A program made the translations under genes and the position numbers. The notes under the pieces were generated by a model. That model was given only the letters and a program-made list of their open reading frames with translations. It searched no databases and had not been told where the DNA came from. Positions 10,243-25,725 of a DNA stretch of 64,000 bases are shown piece by piece; within the stretch, counting starts at the first letter, position 1; each line of letters opens with the position of its first letter. Origin of the DNA: a virus (lineage: Duplodnaviria; Caudoviricetes); IMG/VR virus record IMGVR_UViG_3300011116_001007; one strand, 5' to 3'.

Positions 10243-10719
10243 TTAAATGTACCAAATTTCTCGAAATCCTTCTTCCAAAGTGGGCTCTTCCCAATTGGCA
10301 ATCATATGATCAACTACTGCTTCGGGGATTATTTTCCCAGAATCATATCGATTTTGTAGTCGCCGATCCAATTCATCACGCGGCGGTGTACGGAATACCA
10401 CAGCAATGGCATAGTACTCGGGCAACATGTTGAACTTCTTTCGACGACTTGCCGCAGTGGTCGAAGTTTGATCCCACACAATATCTTGACTGGCTTCACG
10501 AGCATGCACTACATCGCCGGTCATGTGCTCCACACATTTGGGCATGACTTCTTTGAAAACTTCGCTGTAGGTCTTGCCTGCACTTTTTGCAAACTCTTCT
10601 ACATAACGATCTGTGGAAATGTATGCAGCTTCTTGCAGCCAAGTTTGATCAGAATGCCAGGTACTTTTTCCACTACCTGGCACTCCAACCAAAACGTACA
10701 ATTTACATTGTCGGTCCAT
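10243..10719 (-). CDS. P-loop (AAA_33/PNK-like) kinase
   Basis: GVPGSGKST, ISTD, WDQT motifs. Confidence 0.85.
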   Translation of the reverse strand: MDRQCKLYVLVGVPGSGKSTWHSDQTWLQEAAYISTDRYVEEFAKSAGKTYSEVFKEVMPKCVEHMTGDVVHAREASQDIVWDQTSTTAASRRKKFNMLPEYYAIAVVFRTPPRDELDRRLQNRYDSGKIIPEAVVDHMIANWEEPTLEEGFREIWYI

Positions 10720-11293
10720 TACCGTTCCTAAATCCAATTTCCCCACCTTCTTCAACAATGCGTTTTTGCACATCTTCAAACAAGATAGGAGCAAAGTCTG
10801 TGTGCTCTACACATACACAATGATAGCGTGGATCAACAACCTTGGTCACAAATTCACCAGCAGCAGGCCCTGCCTTCATTACTCTGTTGGCATGCAAGTG
10901 TCCGTGAATGTTCACACCAAAGCGACCCAACGATTCCTCGTGGATGGGTATGTGACTCAAGATCATTCCGTTCATCACATGGTATGCACGTAACTCGCGA
11001 AAGTGTTCACGGTACTCATCATCTCGAAAGATGTCATGATTACCGCGGATCAAAACTTTGTCACCGTTCAACCTACGCATGATACCTAAGGACTTGCGGT
11101 TGATAACAACATCGCCTAAATGGTATACCTTGTCTGTGGGCCGGACACGTTCGTTCCAGGCCTTGACCATGGCCTCGTCCATTTCCTCAGGCGTGTCCCA
11201 AGGACGTAATTTGGTCACACCGTCGTTGCGAGTGAAATGGCACACACCTTTGTGTCCAAAGTGTGTGTCTGATACTAAAAATACTGATGGCAT
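10703..11293 (-). CDS. calcineurin-like metallophosphoesterase
   Basis: SDTHFGH, LGD, GNHD, HGH motifs. Confidence 0.9.
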   Translation of the reverse strand: MPSVFLVSDTHFGHKGVCHFTRNDGVTKLRPWDTPEEMDEAMVKAWNERVRPTDKVYHLGDVVINRKSLGIMRRLNGDKVLIRGNHDIFRDDEYREHFRELRAYHVMNGMILSHIPIHEESLGRFGVNIHGHLHANRVMKAGPAAGEFVTKVVDPRYHCVCVEHTDFAPILFEDVQKRIVEEGGEIGFRNGNGPTM

Positions 11294-11311
11294 AATGTCC
11301 TCTTTGTGTGT

Positions 11312-11340
11312 ATTATACAACAATGAACATTACTGGTCAA
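11312..11340 (-). promoter_or_regulatory. sigma70-type promoter
   Basis: TTGACC-N17-TATAAT. Confidence 0.8.
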
Positions 11341-12303: not shown

Positions 12304-12876
12304 TTACAATAACCCTTCAGCAGTCAACACATTGACTATGTCTTGCCCAAGCTCAATTTCGGTACGCACATTGAGATCCAACAATTCGTCTTGTAATTTT
12401 TGTTTGTTCTTCTTGCCTAGCACAACCGCAGTTCGGAAACCAGCCAGGTCTTCGGCAGTGAATATAGAAGTGTCTACTGTGGAATCGTGACCGTAGTACA
12501 GGCTGCGACCTTCGTCTTTGCGATTGCGAAGTTTTTCTAATTTACCAGCCACAACCTCTACACTTTCACGAACACTTTTACCAGACATGTCTAGATAAAA
12601 CTGTATTTTCTTTTCAAGCGATGCAATATCTGCCAACTTGTCATTGATGTTGGCCTGATGATTGGCGCGGCTCACAGACTTGCGGATATCGTACAGGCTG
12701 TTTAACAAACTGGTCTGACGATCTTGTTTGGCCACAAAATCTAGGCGTAATTTTGCAATTGCATCTTCGGCAATTTGGAATTCGTTGACTTTGACTTCGG
12801 TGTCAAATTTGATGCCTTTTAATGCATCCTGGATGGCCAATTGTAATGCATTGGCTTTGCGTAGATTGATTTTCAT
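12304..12876 (-). CDS. hypothetical coiled-coil protein
   Basis: MKINLRKANALQ..; 190 aa. Confidence 0.75.
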   Translation of the reverse strand: MKINLRKANALQLAIQDALKGIKFDTEVKVNEFQIAEDAIAKLRLDFVAKQDRQTSLLNSLYDIRKSVSRANHQANINDKLADIASLEKKIQFYLDMSGKSVRESVEVVAGKLEKLRNRKDEGRSLYYGHDSTVDTSIFTAEDLAGFRTAVVLGKKNKQKLQDELLDLNVRTEIELGQDIVNVLTAEGLL

Positions 12877-14307: not shown

Positions 14308-14399
14308 TGGTACCAGCGGAGAGGATCGAACTCTCTCAAGAACGCTAATCTGGCGCTAAAAGGCTTATAAGACCTCTCTGACTCCCAAGTCTCGCTGGT
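14308..14399 (-). tRNA. atypical class II tRNA with TAT anticodon
   Basis: 7-bp acceptor, 4-nt D-loop, loop CTTATAA, long variable arm, T-loop TTCGATC, A-CCA. Confidence 0.65.
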
Positions 14400-15539: not shown

Positions 15540-16451
15540 TTAGTTTTCCAAATAGTCGGGTAGATTGTTATCTCTAGCCCAGCGATTGTACGCATCAACA
15601 CACTGCACAAAATTTATCACAATCTGCCTCTTGTCCGCCGGAGTGGTAGATTTGATAGGAATGGTATCAAGCATGACTTGATCACTGCACATGATTGACA
15701 ATGTGTTATCAATTGCCTCAACGGCCGAAATCATGTCTGCATCAAATTCTGGATCAATGTTTTTGCTAATCTCATAATGGTACTGTGTGTACTCGGCAAT
15801 ACTGATGCCATATTTTTGTTTGATTGTTTGTTGGGTGGGAAAATATCGGCACAGCACTGCATCAATATCACTTGACAACTCTTCGTACAACAACGGAACA
15901 AATCCGGGAAATGTGTTACTTAACCAATTGCGATAGTCGAGATATCGTTGTGATTGTTGTATAACAATATCTGTGTCAACTTCAAATCTTTTATCTCCAT
16001 ACAAGCGCACACGATCTTTGGCACTGTGTACGTTGTTGATCTGCTGTGATGCCGGGCGGTCAGTGCAGCGTCGCACAGCATAACTCAATGCATAATCAAA
16101 AATATTGTCTCGTATGCTACCAAACACTGTGAAATTATTGCGTAAGTATTCTGTAAATAATTCTTGTTGTGATTTGGTTTCGCTGCGATTCAGCCAATGG
16201 TCATAGGCCAATCGCACCAGTACAGGATTAGCACTGGATGACAACAACCCAGACAACTCATCAAAACTCTGTGTATTGACGTCGGCCCATTTTTTTATCA
16301 AATAGCCTTGCTCCCCAACACCTATTCCATTTAGCAATTCATGCGGATTGACAAGATTAGGTTGTATCAGTTCTCTAATCCAGAAAGTGGCTGCTCTTTG
16401 AAAATAAGTAGACCCTGATCCAAATGATGCAATTAACAAAACGTTTTTCAT
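15540..16451 (-). CDS. hypothetical protein (sulfotransferase/P-loop-like N-terminus)
   Basis: ASFGSGSTY motif and a later YEEL. Confidence 0.55.
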   Translation of the reverse strand: MKNVLLIASFGSGSTYFQRAATFWIRELIQPNLVNPHELLNGIGVGEQGYLIKKWADVNTQSFDELSGLLSSSANPVLVRLAYDHWLNRSETKSQQELFTEYLRNNFTVFGSIRDNIFDYALSYAVRRCTDRPASQQINNVHSAKDRVRLYGDKRFEVDTDIVIQQSQRYLDYRNWLSNTFPGFVPLLYEELSSDIDAVLCRYFPTQQTIKQKYGISIAEYTQYHYEISKNIDPEFDADMISAVEAIDNTLSIMCSDQVMLDTIPIKSTTPADKRQIVINFVQCVDAYNRWARDNNLPDYLEN

Positions 16452-17344
16452 TCGTAAATTTTTCTCAAAGTGTTTTGGGCTGAGATTGGTATCAAGTCTT
16501 GATACGATATCTTTACATCATGAGACAAACACAGGAGGGCCAAGTCTCGTGCTCGTGCCCGGGTGCTGTTGTTTTCCAATGACTGCCCTAGTATTATTTC
16601 AACTAAGAAATCATGCTGAATCAGTGCATCGGGATGTGGGTCAGAGTGTACACATTCTAAATATTCTTGTGTACACTGCCGAGCAGTCTTGTACTCCCAT
16701 AGTCCTTGATAAGATTTTGGATCCTGTGGATCCTTTGGTGGCATAAAAAACCGGTTCCAGTCAATAAGAGACAACAGATTGGAAACTGCTGGAATCTTTA
16801 ATATTTCACTTGCAGTGTTCAATTCAATTGAGGAAAGTTGATTGCAACTATCCCAACGATATTTCCAGGAATCAATGGTCACAGTAGGCCTAACATCAAA
16901 CCAAGGATTTTGCCAAAACACCATGTGATAACGACACCCAATCTGATTCAACAGATGTTGGATTTGGTATATGGTAGAAAAATTATCCACGATCATGTGT
17001 GTAAGACTTGTTTCGTGATCAGGGTGTGTGCGATATAATCCGCGCCAGGGCACTGGAGAGCATTCTAGTCTTCCAGCAGCTGGAAAGAATCCTTGACAAT
17101 CGTGCTGATCAACCCAGTCTTGGTCGTACCATGTTGTGACACGATTGCTGCCACTCAGCATGATGATCACAGTATCGTCCTGGGTGATATCTTTTGATCT
17201 TGACAACAGTTCCCAATACTGTGTTTGATTGCTGCGTCCGGGCCAGGCCAGGTTGATAACAGTGTCTGTGGAATATTCGCTCAACCAATCGCTCCAGGTA
17301 TGCCAATACCATTTTGTAAAACTACATCCTAATGTATAAATCAT
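16448..17344 (-). CDS. SGNH/GDSL-like protein
   Basis: GCSFT, NLAWPGRSN, DPHPD; true start after the tRNA-Ile gene. Confidence 0.65.
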   Translation of the reverse strand: MIYTLGCSFTKWYWHTWSDWLSEYSTDTVINLAWPGRSNQTQYWELLSRSKDITQDDTVIIMLSGSNRVTTWYDQDWVDQHDCQGFFPAAGRLECSPVPWRGLYRTHPDHETSLTHMIVDNFSTIYQIQHLLNQIGCRYHMVFWQNPWFDVRPTVTIDSWKYRWDSCNQLSSIELNTASEILKIPAVSNLLSLIDWNRFFMPPKDPQDPKSYQGLWEYKTARQCTQEYLECVHSDPHPDALIQHDFLVEIILGQSLENNSTRARARDLALLCLSHDVKISYQDLIPISAQNTLRKIYE

Positions 17345-17570: not shown

Positions 17571-17659
17571 ACCATATGGAAACACACTAAAAGTAATCTA
17601 ACATACAAGAGCGCCGTGCGAACGTATGCTAAAAGGTATCTAATGTGTTTGCATATGGT
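17571..17659 (-). repeat. ACCATAT-stem element, copy A
   Basis: ACCATATGCAAACACATT..AGTGTGTTTCCATATGGT. Confidence 0.8.
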
Positions 17660-18551
17660 GAAAGGACTGAGAATACATCCTCTCCAACAACACCTCGGAC
17701 ATTATTGTACACCTTGCGAGTATACTTTCTTCCGACTTCCACCCGGCCCTATTTCTAGGTATCCTGGTCTGCTGTCAGCATCGCCGTTTAGAGACAGGCA
17801 GTAGTCTTGACGCTGTATGCTATTCTACGCTTTCTATTCCGTTGACCTTGCGAGCCATTCAAGTGCGCTAACACCTTACGAAACTTCCTGCATAAACTAA
17901 TGTCACCTTGCGAGCTTCATTAGACTTGGTTCTCTTGCGAGCCAAGTATTAGATGCTTTTCACATACAACCGAGTCAGTCTTTGCGTTTTAATCGTTAGA
18001 AGGAGTTGAACCTTCAGTCTATTTCTTAAAAGGAAATCGGCCTACCATTAGCCTATAACTGAACCTACTGCGATGTGCTGACTCAGTTGCTGCATACTCT
18101 TTTGGAATACACAATACAACACACCACGTACCTTTTGTCTTGCGAACTACTCAGTCGTCTTTTGCGATCGGTGTGTCCCCGCCTTTCGACAGACCCACTA
18201 ACCACTCAAACTGCATACGAGCCCTTGGGTGCAACCCCTCGGACAAATACGCTACCCTTTCTCATACTAATTAACTGGACTGGTTTAGTTGTGAAGTCAG
18301 CACCACCTGTTACTTTCCATCGACTCAAGTTCCCCTTGCGGGCTTGTAAATCAACGTTCTTTCCACAACATCCAGCGTCATTGTTACAACCACCGGTCTT
18401 ATCAGTGATCGCTACCTCACGGTAGTGAGCAGGCTTGCTTAAACGAACTATCTCTAGCGGAGTTATGTAGGCATACCTCCTTTGGCTGTGTCACCACAGT
18501 TATTCTTCATAAACCAGCAAGCTGGCTTATAGGACGTTAAACCGCCCTTGA
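17656..18551 (-). ncRNA. probable GOLLD large ncRNA
   Basis: ~890-nt non-coding unit from a promoter to ACCA, at least 6 CGCAAG tetraloop hairpins, 3' GGATGTATTCTCAGTCC similar to my recollection of GOLLD ends, tRNA-array context; Rfam not run. Confidence 0.65.
17991..18062 (-). tRNA. tRNA-Lys(TTT)-like, embedded in the large ncRNA
   Basis: D-arm GGCT-AATGGT-AGGCC, loop CTTTTAA, T-arm GAAGG-TTCAACT-CCTTC; bulged acceptor, no CCA. Confidence 0.65.
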
Positions 18552-18557
18552 AATCTT

Positions 18558-18586
18558 ATTGTAGCATCAAAGTTGATCCTTGTCAA
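18558..18586 (-). promoter_or_regulatory. sigma70-type promoter of the large ncRNA
   Basis: TTGACA-N17-TACAAT. Confidence 0.8.
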
Positions 18587-18596
18587 CTTGAGTTTT

Positions 18597-18680
18597 ACCA
18601 TATAGAAACACACTAGCCTGCAGGACTACTAATAGCTCACGGGTACGCCGCTACTACTAGGTAATGTGTTTTTATATGGT
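18597..18680 (-). repeat. ACCATAT-stem element, copy B
   Basis: ACCATATAAAAACACATT..AGTGTGTTTCTATATGGT; starts with the tRNA-Lys ACCA. Confidence 0.8.
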
Positions 18681-18752
18681 AGGACCGCCCGGATTCGAAC
18701 CGGGAACTGGCGGATTAAAAGTCCGCTGTGATAACCATTTCACCACGATCCC
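18677..18752 (-). tRNA. trnK: tRNA-Lys(TTT)
   Basis: Canonical cloverleaf. Confidence 0.96.
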
Positions 18753-21679: not shown

Positions 21680-21772
21680 TGGGCCTCTGAGAGTGGAATT
21701 GAACCACCAAGGTTTTTGGAACCTTTTTGACCTACTAGTAAGGACGACTTTACCGATTCGTCTACTCAGAGA
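21680..21772 (-). tRNA. atypical class II tRNA with possible CTA (amber) anticodon
   Basis: 8-bp acceptor, D-arm GAC-GAATCGGTAAA-GTC, loop TACTAGT, long variable arm, T-loop TTCAATT, CCA. Confidence 0.55.
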
Positions 21773-21971: not shown

Positions 21972-22165
21972 AAATAAGGACAAGCTACTGGTTTCCACAC
22001 CAGCCCTTGATTGAGCGGTTACTCTGTCCATCTTTTTTATCTGGTATCTGTGTGCAGAAAGATAACTGCCTATCAGATTCAGGATTGCTCCGCTAACGGT
22101 CTTCTGCCACCGGACCTCTATCGCTAGTCAAACGCTACTTTAACGAAAGTAGTAACGGGATTCTT

Positions 22166-22280
22166 ACCATATAGGAACACACTACGTATCTTAGTCACGT
22201 GTAGTTTTGGAGGGCTACACTACAGACCCAAATAGTTAGACCGCGAATCTAACCCAACCTGGAGTATGTTCTTATATGGC
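22166..22280 (-). repeat. ACCATAT-stem element, copy C
   Basis: GCCATATAAGAACATACT..AGTGTGTTCCTATATGGT. Confidence 0.8.
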
Positions 22281-22353
22281 AAACTCATTGCGGACAGGAT
22301 TCGAACCTGCATCACCCACTAAGGGCATCCTAACCACTAGAAGACCGCGAGTT
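22277..22353 (-). pseudogene. tRNA-like element with truncated anticodon arm
   Basis: Intact D (AGTGGTTAGGA) and T (GCAGG-TTCGAAT-CCTGT) arms; anticodon arm reduced to CCC-TTAGT-GGG; bulged acceptor; GCCA end. Confidence 0.6.
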
Positions 22354-22401
22354 CCTGAGGGCAATTACTCCCCAGCACGGATGCTACCTGCAGATAACAT
22401 T

Positions 22402-22484
22402 ACCATATAGGAACACACTTTAGTAAGCCCTACGCATCCGACAAAGTTGTCACGCATCCAAAGCAAAATGTGTTTTTATATAAT
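22402..22484 (-). repeat. ACCATAT-stem element, copy D
   Basis: ATTATATAAAAACACATT..AGTGTGTTCCTATATGGT. Confidence 0.75.
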
Positions 22485-22797: not shown

Positions 22798-22804
22798 ATG
22801 ATTC

Positions 22805-23040
22805 ACTATATGAAAACACAATTATACAGGAACTTTGCTGATAAAATCTAATCTAGCTATGATTAGACCAATCGCCGTCATTACTGCCTACCTGTTTCGT
22901 CTTCCTCATCTTCATGGCCTAAGCCACTGATTCAGCATCTTGTAAGTGGAGGAGTAGCCAGCCACGGCGGGGCTCAAACCCATAATCCTATCACTCACCT
23001 AACGATGTAGGTAACCTGTATAATTGTGTTTACATATAGT
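22805..23040 (-). repeat. ACCATAT-stem element, copy E (26-bp stem)
   Basis: ACTATATGTAAACACAATTATACAGG..CCTGTATAATTGTGTTTTCATATAGT around a structured 184-nt cargo. Confidence 0.8.
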
Positions 23041-23136
23041 GCTCAGAACTGAATCTGAGTACACTATACAAAATCAAATTTTTAACGAACTTGCTGCACT
23101 GTGTCGATGCACTGTGCTGCTTTCTAACTAGTCTCT

Positions 23137-25049: not shown

Positions 25050-25086
25050 TACATATATAACGCGGTAGCCCAGCATCACGTTGACA
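25050..25086 (-). promoter_or_regulatory. ECF-like promoter motif, copy 1
   Basis: TGTCAAC-N16-GCGTTATATATGTA, same blocks and spacing as 25739-25775. Confidence 0.55.
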
Positions 25087-25095
25087 CAAGCCAAA

Positions 25096-25117
25096 AAGAA
25101 ACCCGCCAAAGCGGGTT
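25096..25117 (-). terminator. intrinsic terminator after tmRNA
   Basis: AACCCGC-TTTG-GCGGGTT-TCTTTT. Confidence 0.85.
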
Positions 25118-25415
25118 CTGAATTTCTGTTACGAGGTATGTCTTACCCTAAGCGGCGTTTAGGCTGCTAATGCGAACAGTTCGTCGTTTGCGTTTATAGA
25201 TTTTCTTCTTTTTACAAGGTTGCTCTTGTGCTGTCCACTCTGTTACTCTTTACTCTGTCGAAACCAGGGCAGGCCCATCAAAAGAACTATCGACTAACAT
25301 TCCCCCACATACTGCATTTCTGGTGTGGCTAATGCAAAAGTTCTTTTGGTGGACCTGGCGGGAGTCGAACCCGCGTCCAGAACACTTTTCTCTTTGCTTC
25401 ATACAGCAATAACTT
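25118..25415 (-). ncRNA. ssrA: permuted two-piece tmRNA
   Basis: Acceptor piece ending GGTTCGACTCCCGCCAGGTCCACCA (25347) precedes coding piece starting GGGCCTG (25276); G3:U70; tag ANDELFALAA at 25159-25191; hairpin spacer. Confidence 0.95.
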
Positions 25416-25419
25416 TTAT

Positions 25420-25725
25420 TTATCGTTGATAGCAATTACGCTCACGGTAAATCTGACCATCCGGCATCTGAATTTCTCTCCACGCTGTGCAAATGGTCTG
25501 GGGTTGTGGTACAATCACTTGCTCACGTTGAACCACAACTGGTTGTGGCTGGTTAGCATTGGCAATTACTGCTCCAGCAATACCACCAATGATCAATGGG
25601 CCAATCCAGTCATTTCTTTGTTCAACAATAACAGGTCGGTTGTCCCAATGTCGATGATCATGACGCCATTGTGCTTGGGCTGCGGTTGCTGCTAGTAATG
25701 CAATTACCAATAATACTTTTTTCAT
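25420..25725 (-). CDS. secreted protein
   Basis: Signal peptide, Gly zipper GGIAGAVIA, two Cys. Confidence 0.75.
   Translation of the reverse strand: MKKVLLVIALLAATAAQAQWRHDHRHWDNRPVIVEQRNDWIGPLIIGGIAGAVIANANQPQPVVVQREQVIVPQPQTICTAWREIQMPDGQIYRERNCYQR

Follow-up and report, generated by a model that had tools for sequence, protein, structure and literature searches.

What does a long, structured RNA, encoded within a large phage's tRNA array, do with a tRNA-like cloverleaf in its linker? GOLLD cages have been solved for env-38, as a 14-mer (PDB 9MEE), and for Streptococcus agalactiae, as a 12-mer (9L0R) (PMC12286853, PMC12990946). Linkers holding tRNAs or pseudo-tRNAs have already been published (Kretsch 2025, PMC12286853), among them a Mycolicibacterium tRNA-Phe in J13/15 (PMC12990946) and a pseudo-tRNA embedded in the GOLLD RNA of M. 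aubagnense (PMC6582537). The locus described here lies in a window of 64,000 nucleotides, by which we mean the whole stretch of DNA that was analysed, and a sequence-only reading of it had proposed a GOLLD RNA whose scaffold may display a tRNA-Lys decoy against anticodon nucleases such as PrrC. The locus is one more member of the GOLLD family with an insert of a known kind; the useful part of the present analysis is the comparative result on the anticodon loop, a constraint that offers a testable clue to function.

The GOLLD RNA and its surroundings

The Rfam GOLLD model (RF02032) matched the minus strand at 18127..17664 over its whole length (positions 1-416), scoring 202.4 bits against a cut-off of 150 (E 1e-55). 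ROOL, another large and ornate phage RNA found near tRNA arrays and forming cages with an internal linker, has a different fold, and its Rfam model gave no match in the window even at E<=1. The GOLLD match (17664..18127) covers the last helix of the 5' side, the linker and the conserved 3' domain, whereas the 5' domain (18128..18551, minus strand) lies beyond the Rfam model; the full-length RNA of about 890 nt is predicted to span 17660..18551 on the same strand. Homologues were collected by pattern scans that did not touch the tRNA, yielding at least 219 clade loci; distinct among their sequences are 136 linkers and 99 full-length RNAs, the last with a median identity of 74% and lengths of 834-902 nt (median 885).

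Mutual information across the 99 homologues identified covarying helices in both GOLLD domains, throughout the RNA. Like the solved GOLLD RNAs, that of the window is longer than 800 nt, lies in a phage tRNA array and has two domains joined by a variable linker. Its 5' domain is structured and variable, as is typical of the family, with many helices that covary in the 99 homologues (for example 18544:18535, 18497:18488, 18423:18414, 18367:18290, 18344:18328 and 18205:18164). The long-range tertiary pairings expected of the family are also present, since 18081:17975, 17968:17814 and 17737:17673 covary. The first of these, 99% paired, belongs to a pseudoknot between 18085-18080 and 17976-17971 (17971..18085, minus strand) that brackets the linker and puts the tRNA-like domain in J13/15, a name given by comparison with PMC12990946. 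The RNA closes with a terminal helix (17660..17684, minus strand), in which 17684-17678 pairs with 17666-17660 and 17683:17661, 17679:17665 and 17678:17666 covary. This helix carries a conserved UCUCAG-containing loop, of which base 17673 covaries with 17737; as in the solved RNAs, this loop is paired to a joining strand that lies further upstream, and the GC dinucleotide of the L21a-equivalent loop is likewise shared. The env-38 linker is about 42 nt long and disordered, whereas that of the window is about 85 nt long and contains a full cloverleaf.

Within the 896-nt unit no stop-free stretch on the minus strand exceeds 94 codons, and the RNA folds with an energy z of -3.65. The motif CGCAAG occurs in it six times, against 18 times in the rest of the minus strand and about 0.26 expected, an enrichment of about 20-fold. 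The earlier description of a non-coding, GCAA-rich unit of about 890 nt therefore stands, as does its assignment to GOLLD, for which covariance-model searches with GOLLD and ROOL had been proposed as the check: the RF02032 score lies above the cut-off, ROOL is not matched, and 99 full-length homologues covary. We regard the unit as almost certainly a full-length GOLLD RNA encoded among the tRNA genes of a large phage, and as far as sequence can show, its membership is secure.

The phage origin of the window is indicated by a DNA polymerase of family phrog_262 and by complete phage relatives of 354-374 kb. Around the GOLLD unit, the window contains 34 tRNA calls (ARAGORN) and a permuted, two-piece tmRNA (25068-25459, minus strand) with the tag ANDELFALAA, which matches two Rfam tmRNA models, the permuted one and that of the Betaproteobacteria; the latter match hints at the host group. 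Of the minus-strand tRNA calls, one of 93 nt at 21680-21772 carries a CUA (amber) anticodon and is without an Rfam tRNA match at the gathering threshold, and one of 92 nt at 14308-14399, a tRNA-Ile(UAU), has a rare anticodon and is also without an Rfam tRNA match. The commonest neighbour of GOLLD is a 190-aa ORF (12304-12876, minus strand), matched at 44 of 109 related loci; it has no Pfam or PHROG family, and its look-alikes in the ESM Atlas are unnamed phage clusters. A metallophosphoesterase (10703-11323) is the next commonest (35/109). Directly downstream of the tRNA-Ile and GOLLD lie two ORFs of about 300 aa (15540-16451 and 16448-17344, minus strand) without a Pfam or PHROG match and without a counterpart at the 109 related loci; they form a phage-specific insert, and no partner protein for GOLLD emerged from them in these searches.

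The promoter claimed upstream of the unit is present in the sequence. It is of the sigma-70 type (18558..18586, minus strand), with a -35 box TTGACA at 18586-18581, a TG extension and a -10 box TACAAT at 18563-18558; with its 17-nt spacing it scores 11/12 and is the third best site in 8 kb. Among 71 homologues scored, the region before the first hairpin contains a promoter-like site in 28, a tRNA-like end in 18 and both in two.

The 3' end and its flanking stem

The RNA had also been read as ending in CCA, and CCA is indeed present after the terminal helix, at 17658-17656 on the minus strand. In the 99 homologues the bases at this place are CTA in 50, CTT in 17 and CCA in only seven. The CCA of the window is contained in a 20-nt arm that pairs with 17590-17571, forming a stem that flanks the unit downstream (17571..17659, minus strand; hairpin z -7.3); the stem is about 20 bp long, contains a single mismatch and has a 5' arm that begins with ACCA. 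A partner arm about 25-70 nt further on was found in 73 of 84 homologues and in 2 of 77 controls. A tmRNA-like or tRNA-like CCA end was thus rejected, as the CCA belongs to the conserved arm of the flanking stem; on this comparison it is incidental, and a reading of it as a meaningful tRNA-like end is not supported. The stem itself is probably a 3'-processing signal, which would be RNase III-like.

A sister stem of the same family lies upstream (18596..18681, minus strand), where its 5' arm overlaps the CCA of a free tRNA-Lys(UUU). Stems of about 20-27 bp with a shared arm sequence, a single mismatch and unrelated loops occur in all at 17571-17659, 18596-18681, 22164-22282 and 22804-23041, and a further arm lies at 22400-22419. 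The members of this family are probably processing sites of the tRNA-array transcript.

The tRNA-like domain of the linker

The embedded domain occupies 17991..18062 on the minus strand and is supported by an ARAGORN call of Lys(TTT), by the Rfam tRNA model and by covariation; as had been noted, this cloverleaf is not followed by a CCA of its own. Its D (18053-18039), anticodon (18037-18021) and T (18015-17999) arms are all canonical, and U8-A14, G18G19, UUC in the T loop, U33 and an anticodon loop of 7 nt are present, as in a functional tRNA. The 7-bp acceptor stem, discriminator and encoded CCA of a functional tRNA-Lys(UUU) are not. In the standard register four contiguous acceptor pairs are formed (18059-18056 with 17998-17995), seven would require a bulge of 2 nt as well as two G-U pairs, and the Rfam tRNA model is matched only at positions 4-67. 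The isolated domain gives no folding-energy signal (z +1.09), so that its support comes from covariation.

A cloverleaf is present in 133 of the 136 distinct clade linkers, three linkers being without the domain. The D, anticodon and T stems of these copies each occur with several pair types, through compensatory change, and the 13-22-46 triple covaries among them (CGG 80, UGA 28, UAA 13), so that selection evidently maintains the L-shape. Matters are different at the acceptor end: only one of 133 tails contains CCA, against 1851 of 1872 free tRNAs encoded at these loci, the acceptor stem has all 7 bp in 10/126 embedded copies versus 1408/1628 free tRNAs, and the discriminator and acceptor pairs 1-3 are unconstrained. 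That a free tRNA was recently copied into the linker was rejected, since the best matches reach about 80-85% over 41-57 nt and are mostly to tRNAs for other amino acids. Since a free, CCA-bearing tRNA-Lys(UUU) with a body unlike that of the embedded copy lies 125 nt upstream of the GOLLD unit (18677..18752, minus strand), the embedded Lys(UUU) copy is redundant for decoding.

The anticodon loop of the window (18026..18032, minus strand) reads C32 U33 U34 U35 U36 A37 A38, with the anticodon at 18030-18028, and is followed by G39 at 18025. Across the clade, anticodon statistics were taken from 126 clean parses, seven doubtful ones being left out, and U33 is invariant in these partly through the parse filter. 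The anticodons are GUU (66), UUU (34), CUU (8), UCU (7), AUU (3) and others (8), giving 111 NUU anticodons when AUU is included; 36-UAA-38 is present in 117 copies, 35-UUAA-38 in 110 and U35 in 115. On a tree of the tRNA bodies, parsimony places 22 changes at position 34, nine at 35 and three at 36 (p ~2e-4), counts that are rough because the loci sampled are limited in number and related and the scaffolds appear to recombine. Identical bodies with different anticodons make up 7/24 among embedded copies versus 1/161 among free tRNAs. The window's own body is also seen with UCU, and a one-base variant of it with GUU, UUU, CUU and UCU, so the stable anticodon identity of a functional tRNA-Lys across orthologues is missing here. 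Even among the 27 copies with a damaged elbow, in which the GG of the D loop or the consensus of the T loop is gone, 25 keep 36-UAA-38.

No scaffold column covaries with positions 34-36 in the 99 homologues, and on this ground we rejected the idea that the anticodon pairs with a codon-like partner inside the RNA. Complementation of a missing free tRNA was rejected as well, because free tRNAs with the same anticodon are found at similar rates whatever anticodon is embedded (free GUU, 37/66 versus 16/28; free UUU, 29/66 versus 15/28). On a scaffold tree the anticodon changes 33 times, against a shuffled mean of 40.6; this count was set aside in favour of the tRNA-body tree and the identical-body counts, because on the scaffold tree the stem columns of the tRNA show equally frequent changes, suggestive of recombination or of a poorly resolved tree.

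Taken together, the copies suggest that selection has kept an L-shaped fold and a U33-N34-Y35-U36-A37-A38 loop, and neither aminoacylation nor a fixed amino-acid identity; on this evidence the module is not specific for lysine. The linker domain is thus very likely a non-decoding tRNA mimic under selection, which probably cannot carry an amino acid. Published linker tRNAs share the J13/15 location and architecture and are not normal tRNA genes either, but they are 'sometimes present' and have been seen as cargo or pseudogenes. In this clade the domain is near-universal, with tertiary covariation and, unlike in the published mentions, a free wobble base beside a fixed 36-UAA-38. What was presumed cargo or a pseudogene would thereby become a selected mimic with a defined constraint, in which N34 is free, position 35 is a pyrimidine, U36-A37-A38 are fixed and the acceptor end is dispensable. 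A partial literature search found no description of anticodon switching with a fixed 36-UAA-38; the constraint is apparently unreported, its novelty not being assured.

Possible roles of the mimic

The loop of the mimic seems likely, from its pattern of conservation, to be read by a host protein or by the ribosome. By analogy with the family, the GOLLD RNA would be made from its own promoter or as part of the array transcript, would be trimmed at the stem that flanks its 3' end and would assemble into an RNA-only cage of 12-14 chains. The anticodon loop could then be the working surface, read by a host protein that recognizes loops of the Lys, Asn or Arg(UCU) type, likely with t6A37. A candidate for this reader is a tRNA-targeting defence nuclease (PrrC-, RloC- or AriB-like), which a cage holding 12-14 tethered baits might soak up or trap, sparing the working tRNAs. 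Because the loop set of the clade overlaps the targets of PrrC and AriB, bait for such a nuclease is the leading candidate for the role of the mimic, a possible one that we advance with reserve. The whole explanation, that is, a selected mimic, a loop read by a host factor and a nuclease-bait cage, is the best we can offer and seems quite possible, if still short of probable. Its most complete form, in which each cage of the clade is a multivalent RNA trap, its 12-14 tethered, unchargeable mimics binding host defence nucleases that cleave tRNA through anticodon loops of the Lys, Asn or Arg type and the wobble base being adjusted from phage to phage, is speculative and rather unlikely. If true, the trap reading would give GOLLD its first function and would describe an all-RNA anti-defence sponge.

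Several published observations bear on the nuclease-bait reading. The 36-UAA-38 sequence is the determinant of t6A, and E. coli TsaBDE works without CCA (PMC7718258); PrrC is helped by t6A37 (PMC13191261), and its major substrates are Lys(UUU) and Arg(UCU), whose anticodons contain no G (PMC2610378). The sequence of the window fits such a UUU/UCU substrate, in which U34 would be modified and position 37 would carry t6A, but GUU, the majority in the clade (66/126), is poorly suited to PrrC. For AriB the targets are Lys(UUU), Thr(UGU) and Asn(GUU), and viral tRNAs may act as competitors according to the authors of that work (bioRxiv 2025.02.04.636281); against bait, UGU, a main AriB target, is nearly absent from the embedded copies. 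Cleavage by AriB needs U36-A-A-U39 upstream of a cut site at 40/41, a rule derived from one E. coli enzyme (bioRxiv 2025.02.04.636281), and the window has G39, with U39 in only five of the 126 copies; G39 should block cleavage, while binding without cleavage would be compatible with it. Also against bait, most distant GOLLD RNAs have no linker tRNA, and some have other loops (UUG-GA, CUA, and Phe as reported for mycobacteria). Phage tRNAs that counter PrrC, PARIS AriB and retron PtuAB (PMC11464382, PMC11555353, bioRxiv 2025.02.04.636281) resemble the mimic in their Lys and Asn anticodon classes and in a possible anti-defence role, but they are chargeable and cleavage-resistant and restore translation, whereas the mimic, being without CCA and tethered in a scaffold, could act only as bait or competitor. 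In the solved cage, moreover, which is closed, the linker lies inside (PMC12286853), so a nuclease would need the cage to open or to be captured during assembly, and 'display' by the scaffold is doubtful. What survives of the proposed tRNA-Lys decoy is a broader version, with real support from the pattern of conservation, in which the loop is a selected binding surface and possibly a bait; lysine and PrrC were too specific, given the 66 GUU copies and the flips at position 34.

A close rival of bait is that the mimic engages the translation machinery, through the anticodon-binding domain of a class IIb synthetase, the enzymes that make t6A or a ribosome positioned at AAN codons, and that GOLLD sequesters or modulates these. 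LysRS and AsnRS read U35 and U36. The NUU set (111/126) is exactly that of Lys and Asn, the elbow is mostly intact (99/126), and GOLLD is reported to pull down ribosomes (PMC12286853). The UCU variants, seven in the clade and those of two cultured phages, would be ill-suited to LysRS or AsnRS, however; a constraint from t6A alone would leave position 35 free, yet it is U in 115/126, and a CCA-less tRNA in a cage interior would be a poor ligand for the ribosome. Engagement of this kind is doubtful on balance. A structural domain is less likely, and we consider it improbable that the loop docks on another chain of the cage, for example by UUAA self-kissing or A-minor contacts, and aids assembly or opening. 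UUAA at 35-38 is self-complementary (110/126), GOLLD bridges use self-kissing loops and a free position 34 fits, but the U35C variants never carry a compensating A38G, which weakens palindromic kissing, and no scaffold column answers to the anticodon. Cages also form with short, tRNA-free linkers (nucleotides 497-538 in env-38, PMC12286853), three linkers of the clade do without the domain, and a tRNA-specific triple and elbow would be unnecessary.

More improbable still is protected storage, in which the cage shields a precursor that is later excised, given CCA and used in translation ('inhibited storage', PMC12990946). The canonical arms, the 6-7 acceptor pairs of 49/126 copies and the interior location would suit it. 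The missing CCA, the unconstrained discriminator and pairs 1-3, an anticodon that switches between amino acids on one body and the indifferent rates of free same-anticodon tRNAs do not, and the embedded pseudo-tRNA of M. aubagnense was undetected by northern (PMC6582537). Five complete genomes of the clade showed no CCA-adding enzyme, although that of the host would be available. It is very improbable that the domain is a neutral relic, left when a nearby tRNA gene inserted into a linker that tolerated it and began to decay. Such a relic would account for the degenerate acceptor end and the variable linker of the family, but covariation, with strong compensatory change in all three arms and the tertiary triple, already largely refutes it; retention in 133/136 linkers and the unequal rates at positions 34, 35 and 36 also oppose it, and neutrality is nearly excluded. 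The loop constraint offers a three-base mutant, and nature offers tRNA-free variants, as controls for pull-down and anti-defence assays.

The linker design of the clade recurs in two phages in culture, Sinorhizobium phage Phosso and Phaeobacter phage MD18, as CCA-less cloverleafs with UCU-AA loops, and the layout that they share with the clade may reflect common descent rather than convergence. The 35 further GOLLD matches obtained with the Rfam model have mostly short linkers without a tRNA. GOLLD RNAs are unannotated in Phosso (PV764938.1, 33533-34001), BUDD (ON758385.1, 149293-149720) and MD18 (MT270409.1, 22339-22806), and the linker domain of MD18 is annotated as an ordinary tRNA-Arg. Two metagenome copies and the GOLLD RNA of Mycobacterium colombiense have a UUG-GA linker loop in common, and one viral GOLLD copy contains a linker tRNA with a CUA (amber) anticodon.
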